This document shows positions 20,468 to 53,046 of a stretch of 64,000 bases of DNA, one piece after another. Position 1 is the stretch's first letter. Each line of letters begins with the position of its first letter. The translations under genes and the position numbers were made by a program. The stretch is taken from the NCBI RefSeq assembly GCF_003790525.1, contig NZ_CP033635.1; one strand, given 5' to 3'. The notes below the pieces were generated by a model, which searched no databases, was not told the origin of the DNA, and saw nothing but the letters and a program-made list of their open reading frames with translations. The stretch is from Escherichia coli. Its GTDB lineage: Bacteria; Pseudomonadota; Gammaproteobacteria; Enterobacterales; Enterobacteriaceae.

Positions 20468-21619
20468 ATGGCAGCTTCAACCTTTTTTATTCCTTCCGTG
20501 AATGTTATTGGTGCTGATTCATTGAATGATGCAATGAATATGATGGCAGATTATGGATTTACCCGTACCTTAATTGTCACCGACAATATGTTAACGAAAT
20601 TGGGTATGGCGGGTGATGTGCAAAAAGCACTGGAAGAACGCAATATTTTTAGCGTTATTTATGATGGCACCCAACCTAACCCCACCACGGAAAACGTCGC
20701 CGCAGGTTTGAAATTACTTAAAGAAAATAATTGCGATAGCGTGATCTCCTTAGGCGGTGGTTCTCCGCACGACTGCGCAAAAGGTATTGCGCTGGTGGCA
20801 GCCAATGGCGGCGATATTCGCGATTACGAAGGCGTTGACCGCTCTGCAAAACCGCAGCTGCCGATGATCGCCATCAATACCACGGCGGGTACGGCCTCTG
20901 AAATGACCCGTTTCTGCATCATCACTGACGAAGCGCGTCATATCAAAATGGCGATTGTTGATAAACATGTAACTCCGTTGCTTTCTGTCAATGACTCATC
21001 TCTGATGGTCGGTATGCCGAAGTCACTGACCGCCGCAACGGGTATGGATGCCTTAACGCACGCTATCGAAGCGTATGTTTCTATTGCCGCCACGCCGATC
21101 ACTGACGCTTGCGCCCTGAAAGCCGTGACCATGATTGCCGAAAACCTGCCGTTAGCCGTTGAAGATGGCAGTAATGCGAAAGCGCGTGAAGCAATGGCTT
21201 ATGCCCAGTTCCTCGCCGGTATGGCGTTCAATAATGCTTCTCTGGGTTATGTTCATGCGATGGCGCACCAGCTGGGCGGTTTCTACAACCTGCCACACGG
21301 TGTATGTAATGCTGTTCTGCTGCCACACGTTCAGGTATTCAATAGCAAAGTCGCTGCAGCACGTCTGCGTGACTGTGCCGCTGCAATGGGCGTGAACGTG
21401 ACTGGTAAAAACGACGCGGAAGGTGCTGAAGCCTGCATTAACGCCATCCGTGAACTGGCGAAGAAAGTGGATATCCCGGCAGGCCTGCGTGACCTGAACG
21501 TGAAAGAAGAAGATTTCGCGGTACTGGCCACCAATGCCCTGAAAGATGCGTGTGGGTTTACTAACCCGATTCAGGCAACTCACGAAGAGATTGTGGCAAT
21601 TTATCGCGCTGCGATGTAA
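20468..21619 (+). CDS. yiaY: iron-containing alcohol dehydrogenase family protein
   Basis: 383-aa ORF; Fe-ADH family features. Confidence 0.9.
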
Positions 21620-21665
21620 TCATCATTCCCACAATGGCTGGCGAGTTGTCAGCCGCTTTTTCAAC

Positions 21666-21743
21666 TATCTCAAAACTTGCTTTTTTTGAGATAGTTTCTC
21701 TTTCCTGCTATATACTATCTCAATATTGCGCTTTTTTGAGATA
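21666..21743 (+). promoter_or_regulatory. two copies of the palindrome tatctcaa(aa)-N8/10-ttttgagata upstream of the Fic gene (candidate operator)
   Basis: Copy 1 21666-21693, copy 2 21715-21743; tatact -10-like hexamer at 21711-21716 between them. Confidence 0.5.
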
Positions 21744-21748
21744 AGCAC

Positions 21749-23044
21749 ATGGCTATCAAATCACCTCCCGGACTTATTCCTTTATCACACTTATCGGGTG
21801 AGGAACTCCTGGCCCACCTGCGCTTTAACCGGGTTACCGATGAAAAAGGACGTTATCTGCCTTTTGATGAGTTGCAGTACCGCATCAAAAAAGGAGAAAA
21901 CGTCGATGTGGCGTGGACGCTTACCCGTCTGGCGCGCAACGCGGCGATCCAACGAATTAATTATTGCAATGAAGCGGGTGAACAGGCCGGATTCAACATT
22001 ACCCCGGTGATTGCAGAAGCGTGCGAGCTTGTCGACAAACGTGCTACCGCGCTGGCGCTGAAAGATCAGACTGAACGGTTACGCGGGGCCGGAGCCGAGT
22101 TAAGCCAGTTACGCCTGGAAGAGCCGATCACCAGCTCCCAGCTGGAGGGTGCGAATACTACAACGCTGGTGGCGAGAAAAATGCTGGAAACAGGGCGGTC
22201 GCCACGCACTGAAGACGAGCATATGATTGCGGGAAATGCCCGGCTGATGGCGGAAATTCCGCACTTACTCGCAGAACCGCTGACACCTGCGCTTATTCGC
22301 CAGTTACATGCCATTGGTATGGGTGGAATCAATGACGCGAAATATCGTCCGGGAGAATTTCGTGAAACAGATGATGTTGTGATCGCCGACTATGATGGCA
22401 ATATAGTGCATCAACCGCCCGCTGCGGCATTGTTACCGGAACGGCTGGAAAAAGTTTGCCAGTGGTTAAACAGCCATGAAGGGTATATTCATCCGTTGGT
22501 CCGTGCCTGCATTCTGCATTTTATGCTGGCCCATGAACATCCGTTTCGGGATGGCAACGGGCGCACCAGTCGGGCGCTGTTTTACTGGTATATGCTGAAA
22601 TCGGGCTACGATGTCTTTAAATATATTTCCATCAGCCGTTTGCTTCATGCTGCACCGGTCAAATATGCCGCCAGCTACCAGTACACTGAATCAGATGGTA
22701 TGGATCTGACTTATTTCCTTGAATATCAGGCGGGTGTCATTAAACGTGCTCTGCAAAACTGGCAGCAGCATATCGATGAAATTACACAACGAAGCGCAAA
22801 ACTCGATAGTGTGCTGTTTAGCTCTGGTGTGCTTAAACGCCTGAATCCGCGCCAGGTAACGCTCCTGAATGTGATGCTCGCCAATCCGGGGAAAGAGTAC
22901 ACAGTTGCTGAAATTAGCGCGAGCCTGGGCGTCTCTGATAATACGGCTCGAGCTGATTTACGGACAATTGTTAAAGAAGGGTTTGCGCAAGAGAAGAAAA
23001 TTAATGACCAGCAAGCCGTGTACTTCGCGCATTATCCGCTGTAA
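21749..23044 (+). CDS. Fic-domain protein (putative AMP-transferase) with N-terminal inhibitory motif and C-terminal HTH-like tail
   Basis: 431-aa ORF with ATG start; Fic motif [12 protein letters not shown] at nt 22538-22573; upstream SSQLEG matches the (S/T)xxxE(G/N) inhibitory motif; C-terminal segment [30 protein letters not shown] is HTH-like. Confidence 0.8.
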
Positions 23045-23151
23045 CCCTTGCCCGTAAATTCGTGATAGCCGTCGTAAAGCTGTTATCGACTGGCGAAGAT
23101 TTCGCCAGTCACGTCTACCCTTGTTATACCTCACACCGCAAGGAGACGATC

Positions 23152-24690
23152 ATGACCAATAATCCCCCTTCAGCACAGATTAAGCCCGGCGAGTATGGTT
23201 TCCCCCTCAAGTTAAAAGCCCGCTACGACAACTTTATTGGCGGCGAATGGGTAGCCCCTGCCGACGGCGAGTATTACCAGAACCTGACGCCGGTGACCGG
23301 ACAGCTGCTGTGCGAAGTGGCGTCTTCGGGCAAACGAGACATCGATCTGGCGCTGGATGCTGCGCACAAAGTGAAAGATAAATGGGCGCATACTTCGGTG
23401 CAGGATCGCGCGGCGATTCTGTTTAAGATTGCCGATCGGATGGAGCAGAACCTCGAACTGTTAGCGACCGCTGAAACCTGGGATAACGGCAAACCCATTC
23501 GCGAAACCAGTGCTGCTGATGTGCCGCTGGCGATTGACCATTTTCGCTATTTTGCCTCGTGTATTCGGGCGCAGGAAGGCGGTATTAGTGAAGTGGATAG
23601 CGAAACTGTGGCTTATCACTTCCACGAACCGTTAGGCGTGGTGGGGCAGATTATTCCGTGGAACTTCCCGCTGCTGATGGCGAGCTGGAAAATGGCTCCC
23701 GCGCTGGCGGCGGGCAACTGTGTGGTGCTGAAACCCGCACGTCTTACCCCGCTCTCAGTACTGCTGCTAATGGAAATCGTCGGTGATTTACTGCCGCCGG
23801 GCGTGGTGAACGTGGTCAACGGTGCGGGCGGAGAAATTGGCGAATATCTGGCGACCTCGAAACGCATCGCCAAAGTGGCGTTTACCGGCTCAACGGAAGT
23901 GGGCCAACAAATTATGCAGTACGCCACGCAAAACATTATTCCGGTGACGCTGGAGCTGGGCGGCAAATCCCCAAATATCTTCTTTGCTGATGTGATGGAT
24001 GAAGAAGATGCCTTTTTCGATAAAGCGCTGGAAGGCTTTGCACTGTTTGCCTTTAACCAGGGCGAAGTTTGCACCTGTCCAAGCCGTGCTTTAGTGCAGG
24101 AGTCTATCTACGAACGCTTTATGGAACGCGCCATCCGCCGTGTCGAAAGCATTCGCAGCGGTAACCCGCTCGACAGCGTGACGCAAATGGGGGCGCAGGT
24201 TTCGCACGGGCAATTGGAAACCATCCTCAACTACATTGATATTGGTAAAAAAGAGGGCGCAGACGTGCTCACCGGCGGGCGGCGCAAGCTGCTGGAAGGC
24301 GAACTGAAAGACGGCTACTACCTCGAACCGACGATTCTGTTTGGTCAGAATAATATGCGCGTGTTCCAGGAAGAAATTTTTGGTCCGGTGCTGGCGGTGA
24401 CCACCTTCAAAACGATGGAAGAAGCGCTGGAGCTGGCGAACGACACGCAATATGGCCTGGGCGCGGGTGTCTGGAGCCGCAACGGTAATCTGGCCTATAA
24501 GATGGGGCGCGGCATTCAGGCCGGGCGCGTGTGGACCAACTGTTATCACGCTTACCCGGCACATGCGGCGTTTGGCGGCTACAAACAGTCGGGCATCGGA
24601 CGCGAAACCCATAAGATGATGCTTGAGCATTACCAGCAAACCAAGTGCCTGCTGGTGAGCTACTCGGATAAACCGTTGGGGCTGTTCTGA
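23152..24690 (+). CDS. aldB: aldehyde dehydrogenase B
   Basis: 512-aa product from ATG at 23152 preceded by aaggag; ORF track extends upstream to 23062. Confidence 0.9.
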
Positions 24691-52681: not shown

Positions 52682-53046
52682 GGTGTAGGGCCTTCTGTAG
52701 TTAGAGGACAGCTTTAATAAGTAACAATCACCGCGATAAACGTAACCAATTTTTAGCAACTAAACAGGGGAAAACAATTACAGATTTTTATCTTTCGATT
52801 ACGATTTTTGGTTTATTTCTTGATTTATGACAGAGATCTTACTTTTGTTGCGCAATTGTACTTATTGCATTTTTCTCTTCGAGGAATTACCCAGTTTCAT
52901 CATTCCATTTTATTTTGCGAGCGAGCGCACACTTGTGAATTATCTCAATAGCAGTGTGAAATAACATAATTGAGCAACTGAAAGGGAGTGCCCAATATTA
53001 CGACATCATCCATCACCCGCGGCATTACCTGATTATGGAGTTCAAT
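52682..53046. promoter_or_regulatory. divergent xylA / xylF promoter region (XylR- and CRP-controlled)
   Basis: 365-bp intergenic spacer between divergent xylF and xylA starts; regulation known from the K-12 xyl regulon, individual sites not mapped here. Confidence 0.6.

Follow-up and report, generated by a model that had tools for sequence, protein, structure and literature searches.

Results

The yiaY-fic-aldB locus and its two palindromes

The DNA analysed here is a 64-kb stretch (the window) of Escherichia coli SMS-3-5, in which the query region is 100% identical to NC_010498.1. It carries selB (18433-20277), yiaY (20468-21619), fic (21749-23044, plus strand) and aldB, whose RefSeq start is the ATG at 23152 with AAGGAGA ahead of it. 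The fic gene encodes a 431-residue protein annotated as a 'Fic family protein' (WP_000985736.1). The spacer between yiaY and fic is 129 bp long; a canonical, GC-rich yiaY terminator (21635-21655, called by a terminator scan) comes first, and two 28-bp palindromes follow. Just ahead of this terminator, an 11-nt inverted repeat (ATTGTGGCAAT/ATTCCCACAAT, 91% complementary, 21590-21635) lies across the yiaY stop codon. On the other side of fic, 107 bp separate the stop codon from the aldB start. This gap holds a perfect inverted repeat with 10-nt arms (GACTGGCGAA-GAT-TTCGCCAGTC, 23088-23110), which is also found in K-12 and other fic-less strains and has no T-run after it. The mechanically called aldB ORF starts at a GTG at 23062, as opposed to the RefSeq ATG at 23152, and would encode 542 residues.

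The distal palindrome, O1 (TATCTCAAAACTTGCTTTTTTTGAGATA, 21666-21693), and the proximal palindrome, O2 (TATCTCAATATTGCGCTTTTTTGAGATA, 21716-21743), share the pattern TATCTCAA-N12-TTGAGATA and are assigned to no strand. The perfect arms of O1 reach 13 nt (21663-21675/21684-21696). The two copies are at the same time direct repeats, with 80% identity over 30 nt and 50 bp from start to start. A sequence-only reading of this DNA had described two copies of a palindrome, the second beginning at 21715 and ending 6 bp before the ATG, with a TATACT hexamer between them. Both copies are indeed there, but the second starts one base later, at 21716, and the gap between O2 and the fic ATG at 21749 is five bases (21744-21748). 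The hexamer is also present, at 21711-21716, its last T being the first base of O2; it is specific to SMS-3-5, the other aligned Escherichia sequences having TACACT.

The motif is non-random. TATCTCAA-N8-12-TTGAGATA has two matches in the window, O1 and O2 alone, and none across 100 dinucleotide-preserving shuffles; when up to three mismatches are allowed, a single extra match, at 52941, appears in the window, which is the chance level.

A class II Fic protein with a predicted C-terminal winged helix

The gene had been read as encoding a Fic protein with a helix-turn-helix (HTH) tail, and several lines of evidence bear this out. [quoted passage not shown] The C-terminal part has weak Pfam HTH matches at residues 361-414 (DeoR, HTH_11, IclR, ArsR and MarR). 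In a confident AF2 model built from the 46 homologues (pLDDT 89, pTM 0.85), it folds as three helices (367-378, 386-393 and 397-409) and a two-strand wing (413-417 and 423-427), with a pLDDT of ~75-90 at residues 367-427. Together, the Pfam matches and the modelled secondary structure place the predicted winged-helix region at 22829-23041 on the plus strand. The putative recognition helix, around residues 396-409 (nucleotides 22934-22975, plus strand), includes N398-T399-A400, which is invariant in the homologue alignments.

N-terminal to the Fic motif and in the same chain, the inhibitory-helix (alpha-inh) motif (S/T)xxxE(G/N) is present as S129-SQL-E133-G134, whose columns show little or no variation in the homologue alignments. 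This location assigns the protein to class II. By sequence and model, then, the 431-residue product is a class II Fic AMP-transferase with a predicted C-terminal winged helix. The two-fold symmetry of the palindromes further suggests that it is a dimer.

When the model was searched against the PDB with Foldseek, the nearest structures were CbFic2 (8cil), SoFic (3eqx/3zcn) and 7xux, which we take to be the structure of CccR. The sequence identities are 17-21%, and the alignments to SoFic, CbFic2 and CccR cover ~350 columns. The PADLOC SoFic defence model PDLC03963 matches residues 96-428 at 1.2e-43, but the NCBIfam equivalog NF046030 scores 40.2 bits, far below its cut-off of 550, so that the protein is not a SoFic orthologue. 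The combination of these two results indicates a distinct clade of SoFic-like architecture, with ~60 extra residues at the N-terminus.

The palindromes and the predicted fic promoter

A -35-like hexamer, TTGAGA (21686-21691, plus strand), which agrees with TTGACA at five of six positions, was read by hand in the right arm of O1. It sits 17 nt upstream of TATATA, which belongs to an extended -10-like element, TG(c)TATATA (21706-21714, plus strand; the whole element, 21706-21716, overlaps TATACT at 21711-21716), assigned by hand and from its position across genera. Alternatively, TATACT itself could be read as the -10, in which case the spacer would be 19 nt and over-long. Most E. coli strains have the weaker TATACA or TACACT at this position.

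A consensus promoter scan called no sigma-70 promoter at the palindromes; the TTGAGA-17-TATATA combination was missed because its -10 lacks the final T at the 17-nt spacing. The promoter assignment consequently rests on hand reading and on cross-genus conservation. With these data, O1 and O2, which overlap the -35-like hexamer and flank an extended -10-like element of conserved position, likely cover the fic promoter and its transcription start. The sole Shine-Dalgarno-like sequence in the leader is GAGA (21738-21741) in the right arm of O2; as GAGAU (21738-21742, plus strand), 6 nt before the ATG, it is a possible weak ribosome-binding site.

The palindrome accompanies fic across phyla

Fourteen aligned homologues were used to fetch 80 loci (34-95% identity) from one-genome-per-species contigs, 75 of which were usable. 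A match to TATCTCAA-N12-TTGAGATA at 12 or more of the 16 positions lies at most 250 nt upstream of fic homologues of 35-95% identity at 40 of the 75 loci, against a background of 12 matches in the remaining 478 kb of the same loci (an enrichment of more than 100-fold). Read by eye, the palindrome recurs in the 170 nt before the start codon, in Escherichia and, for example, in Salmonella diarizonae, Photorhabdus, Pectobacterium, Pseudomonas, Marinomonas, Pseudoalteromonas, Alcanivorax and the cyanobacterium Leptolyngbya. At the level of sequence comparison, it is a phylogenetic footprint associated with fic from enterobacteria to a cyanobacterium.

The layout is conserved as well. When the motif is defined more strictly, as a symmetric one, it occurs once or more at 31 loci, of which 17 carry two copies. 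Every one of these 17 loci has 49-52 bp from one copy to the next, and the 21-24-bp spacer between them ends in a -10-like element located 6-7 nt before the proximal palindrome. The elements at this place include TGCTATATA, TGCTATTTT, TATAAT and TATACT; those of other genera have the form (T)GCTAT... or TATAnT. At 30 of the 31 loci, the end of the proximal copy lies between -3 and +8 nt from the first in-frame start codon, and the internal spacer is N12 in the E. coli fic clade. Across six Escherichia sequences, E. albertii among them, all 32 arm positions are invariant, whereas variation is seen at four of the 12 central O1 bases and at four or five of the 22 bases between the copies. Alcanivorax quisquiliarum (locus L045, 2868-2995) has three copies of the palindrome upstream of its fic homologue, in exact 50-bp steps.

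About half of the loci of more distant homologues are without the exact motif and show either nothing obvious or related variants, namely AACTCAA-N10-TTGAGTT, AACGCAA...TTGCGTT and GACTCA...TGAGTC. In one distant subgroup of 34-41% identity (L049, L055, L070, L078, L087, L052 and others), the site is AACTCAA-N10-TTGAGTT or AACGCAA-N10-TTGCGTT; there the recognition helix is xNTARxYLNxL, and the palindrome has a different half-site and a spacer shortened by 2 bp.

No other gene shows such an association. An all-against-all comparison of the flanking ORFs found no family common across genera, sharing being confined to one syntenic Pseudomonas group, and the nearest ORF upstream of the fic homologues is on either strand and 38-848 bp away. 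Given the lack of a shared flanking family and the variable upstream ORFs, the palindrome remains linked to fic and to no other gene. A conserved partner, whether an antitoxin or a separate regulator, was considered and none was found outside the Pseudomonas synteny.

A hold-out set of plasmid-borne homologues gives partial support for the association. On the Klebsiella pneumoniae plasmid pKp_SB617_1, a single TAACTCAA-N12-TTGAGTTA ends 5 nt before the ATG of a fic homologue of 41% identity (L104, 1466-1495), which means that the palindrome-fic module is also plasmid-borne. A more distant Aeromonas homologue has an imperfect version of the motif, and a Vibrio homologue (36% identity) has none. 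Phage-borne copies or decoys were also considered. An exact-motif scan of IMG/VR viral contigs returned 15 single-copy matches (L088-L102), none of which adjoins a fic homologue by tblastn; we took these to be chance matches and saw no sign of copies or decoys carried by phages.

The comparison bears directly on whether the repeats could function as RNA. One could imagine O1 as a second terminator or 3'-end stabiliser for yiaY and O2 as a hairpin in the leader, where it would occlude the fic ribosome-binding site. O1 RNA is indeed predicted to fold stably (-14.1 kcal/mol, z = -6.0), a simple scan flags it as terminator-like, and the only Shine-Dalgarno-like bases lie in the right arm of O2. 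Moreover, the arms change across taxa with pairing kept, and inverted-repeat symmetry is equally expected of an RNA hairpin. We nevertheless regard this explanation as quite improbable. yiaY already has its canonical GC-rich terminator, whereas the O1 stem, with just three G-C pairs out of 13, is not the GC-rich stem with a U-tract expected at the end of an upstream gene, and in other genomes the palindromes track the fic start rather than the ends of upstream genes. The conserved -10-like element between the copies would leave O1 outside the fic transcript. The O2 RNA is weak (-7.3 kcal/mol, z = -1.9), with an 8-bp AU-rich stem around a 12-nt loop. What is conserved goes beyond pairing, extending to the base identity of CTCAA/TTGAG and the exact N12 spacing, and asymmetric sites such as TATCTCAA...TTGAGACA would have A.C mismatches on the sense strand if they acted as RNA. 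Finally, an Rfam scan of 21550-21850 returned no family and only one chance snoRNA match.

The half-site co-varies with the recognition helix

If the Fic winged helix reads the palindrome directly, changes in one might be mirrored in the other. Homologues in which alanine takes the place of E. coli S396, where the recognition helix begins, have T and not C at position 4 of the half-site (ATTTCAA), whereas those with ...C-S-Y-N-T-A... or ...V-S-D-N-T-A... have ATCTCAA. T at position 4 accompanies all five alanine proteins and one of the 27 others (Fisher 3e-5, uncorrected for phylogeny and based on five loci). In a neighbour-joining tree, the five alanine proteins fall into three separate clades, each beside relatives with the Ser/C combination. 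This co-variation is what direct read-out by the Fic winged HTH (wHTH) would produce. Residue 396 and half-site position 4 are accordingly a candidate amino-acid/base recognition pair; if so, an S396A substitution should shift the preference of the protein from TATCTCAA, favoured by the wild type, to TATTTCAA half-sites.

Presence and loss of the locus in E. coli

The full yiaY–fic–aldB region is present in 1574 of 5426 complete E. coli genomes (~29%). The fic-less strains retain scars. In K-12 MG1655, the junction reads ...CTTTTTCAACTATCTC|TGTAACCCTTGCCCG..., where the final five bases of the fic reading frame directly follow the left arm of O1. The corresponding part of the yiaY-aldB spacer, CAACTATCTC|TGTAACCC (L103, 1120-1140, minus strand), equals window positions 21663-21671 plus 23040-23044, so that the scar is a clean 1368-bp deletion of 21672-23039. 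Strains of the Z0117EC0051 type have a decaying O1, and the TATCTC of O2 is joined to the same TGTAA. E. albertii (L008), on the other hand, has fic with both operators. From the full locus in E. albertii and the scars in K-12 and Z0117, fic and its operators appear ancestral at the yiaY-aldB locus and seem to have been lost stepwise, by deletions that join short direct repeats, among them the operator arms. A second variable spot lies beside this locus, downstream of aldB, where the fic-less Z0117EC0051 (L001, 4568-5138) has the hicA-hicB toxin-antitoxin genes and ChlosBP-23-1 (L002, 4311-5113) has araD/sgbU.

The fate of the sites in fic-less strains also speaks to the identity of the DNA-binding protein. 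Their position at a promoter is by itself silent on which protein binds, and they could in principle be operators for another regulator encoded elsewhere, for which there is nothing direct. This we consider highly improbable, since the motif goes with fic from Enterobacterales to cyanobacteria with no conserved neighbour, the half-site co-varies with the recognition helix of Fic itself, in fic-less E. coli the sites have disappeared or decayed together with the gene, and the window holds no further copy of the palindrome.

That the repeats are recombination or mobility sites, i.e. ends or attachment sites of a fic cassette, is hardly credible. In its favour, fic is variably present in E. coli, the breakpoints of the fic-less strains coincide exactly with the TATCTC arm of O1 (K-12) or O2 (Z0117), and homologues occur in many contexts and on plasmids. 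Against it, both copies are on one side of fic, and E. coli shows neither a matching repeat downstream nor a target-site duplication nor a neighbouring recombinase; deletion between short direct repeats (TATCTC/TATCCGC and TATCTC/TATCTC) accounts for the scars, and a fixed distance to the start codon and the -10 is a property of promoters, not of element ends.

Discussion

We consider it very probable that O1 and O2 are tandem operators bound by the Fic product of the gene they precede. The sequence-only reading had proposed just this, a tandem operator for autoregulation by the protein's own HTH tail, and it is now supported computationally: the palindrome travels with fic in a fixed position and with fixed spacing, fic is the sole linked gene outside the Pseudomonas group, and the half-site co-varies with the recognition helix. 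There is also precedent, as the related CccR represses its own gene (PMC9755527) and SoFic binds its own promoter (bioRxiv 10.64898/2026.07.09.737422). Repression, as opposed to activation, also seems the probable effect, if with somewhat less confidence than the binding itself.

The arrangement suggests how this might work. In the proposed model, the half-sites ATCTCAA and TTGAGAT would each be occupied by one of the two C-terminal winged-helix domains of a Fic dimer; the half-site centres are 20 bp apart, that is, two helical turns or ~68 Å. A dimer on O1 would mask the -35-like TTGAGA. Transcription would start ~7 nt past the -10, at about 21720-21723 and hence inside the left arm of O2, giving a leader of ~27 nt made up of O2; a dimer on O2 would thereby mask the start site together with all of the short leader and its GAGA, the likely ribosome-binding sequence. 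With O1 over the -35 and O2 over the start and leader, occupancy of both would block RNA polymerase and keep a potentially toxic AMP-transferase low and self-limited. As O1 and O2 are about five helical turns apart, two dimers might also bind cooperatively.

The best-characterised counterpart is CccR (YPK_0951) of Yersinia pseudotuberculosis, a class II Fic toxin and type VI secretion system (T6SS) effector with a C-terminal HTH, which represses its own gene as a dimer, as established by a lacZ fusion, EMSA, DNase I footprinting and ITC (PMC9755527). Its site is a single AGATAATCAT-N26-ATGATAATCT overlapping or near its own -35/-10, expression is derepressed when the palindrome is mutated or the gene deleted, and the DNA-binding helices of the dimer are 70 Å apart (PMC9755527), close to the ~68 Å between the half-sites here. 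Both proteins combine an N-terminal alpha-inh, a Fic motif and a C-terminal HTH, and 7xux is among the top Foldseek matches of our model. The two are nonetheless well separated. Sequence similarity by phmmer (1.5e-11) is limited to the Fic core, the structural alignment has 18% identity, and CccR, with 380 residues, is without the ~60-residue N-terminal extension. Its one AGATAATCAT-N26-ATGATAATCT differs from the two tandem TATCTCAA-N12-TTGAGATA sites, so the E. coli sites are not a CccR operator, and there is no T6SS context at the E. coli locus. By analogy, the site described here is one predicted to work as the CccR operator does but with a specificity of its own.

SoFic (SO_4266, mloA) of Shewanella oneidensis is likewise a class II Fic protein with a wHTH, and its structure gives the top TM-score with our model (0.70 on the target); the SoFic dimer binds the 100-bp stretch directly ahead of its start codon, in which the site is unmapped (bioRxiv 10.64898/2026.07.09.737422). 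Its distance from the E. coli protein, evident from the equivalog score, is seen also with phmmer, where the SoFic chains reach only ~1e-7. The SoFic promoter was considered as a further carrier of the same motif. CTCAA/TTGAG is, however, absent from the Table S2 fragments, which by our reading have ATGTCGAT/ATCGACAT repeats instead; fragments F1 and F2 contain ATGTCGAT-TGA-ATCGACAT and more copies of ATGTCGAT (bioRxiv 10.64898/2026.07.09.737422). We put forward ATGTCGAT-TGA-ATCGACAT as a candidate SoFic operator, unlike the motif here.

The E. coli protein should not be confused with EcSofic, a defence protein of E. coli H397 with catalytic His 194 and a downstream 47-residue antitoxin, AS1 (PMC12249575). 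EcSofic is a different, shorter paralogue; here the histidine is residue 264, and aldB follows after 107 bp, a gap that leaves no room for a separate 47-residue antitoxin gene. The comparison extends to type II toxin-antitoxin systems such as Phd/Doc, whose toxin Doc has the Fido fold. In these systems, a growth-inhibiting enzyme is kept low through palindromic operators at its own promoter, and tandem operators are common. Their DNA-binding domain is on the separate antitoxin, whereas here a single polypeptide, the toxin, contains both the inhibitory helix and the DNA-binding domain.

Beyond a switch of transcription, the O1-O2 pair could also be a specific DNA ligand that sets the activity state of Fic, an extension which we think rather unlikely but which has a parallel in CbFic2 (CBU_0822) of Coxiella burnetii. 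This class II Fic protein with a DeoR-like wHTH is the best Foldseek match (8cil, 5e-12). DNA binding via its HTH is not sequence-specific; it promotes dimerisation and switches the enzyme between AMPylase and deAMPylase, DNA driving the dimeric deAMPylase form (PMC10628234). Unlike the case made here, no operator or autoregulation has been described for CbFic2. By this analogy, O1-O2 might hold Fic at its own gene as an inactive or deAMPylating dimer-of-dimers. Loss of the DNA contact, through chromosome degradation, competition or modification in phage infection, would then both derepress the gene and free active AMPylase. Such an arrangement, if true, would make Fic a one-protein sensor-effector for abortive infection.

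Returning to the tandem operators themselves, a literature search for the motif strings and for fic together with yiaY and aldB found nothing relevant. Within the literature searched, the principle of autoregulation is already known, but no earlier account of this operator, of its tandem layout or of how deeply it is conserved in this clade came to light. The loop proposed would be a common type of feedback, already demonstrated for a related Fic protein, and it introduces no new principle. Its interest lies in the family. Fic-wHTH proteins are widespread single-chain toxins, the single-gene SoFic family is counted among anti-phage defence systems, and the study of how their expression and activity are controlled is just beginning, comprising one operator that has been footprinted, that of CccR, and one promoter interaction that is unmapped, that of SoFic. 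The present locus supplies a precisely defined candidate operator for a third, large Fic-wHTH clade, kept across phyla, with an architecture of two sites that are five helical turns apart and bracket the -10. The motif may be used for annotating the promoters of this clade and for seeking a wider regulon.
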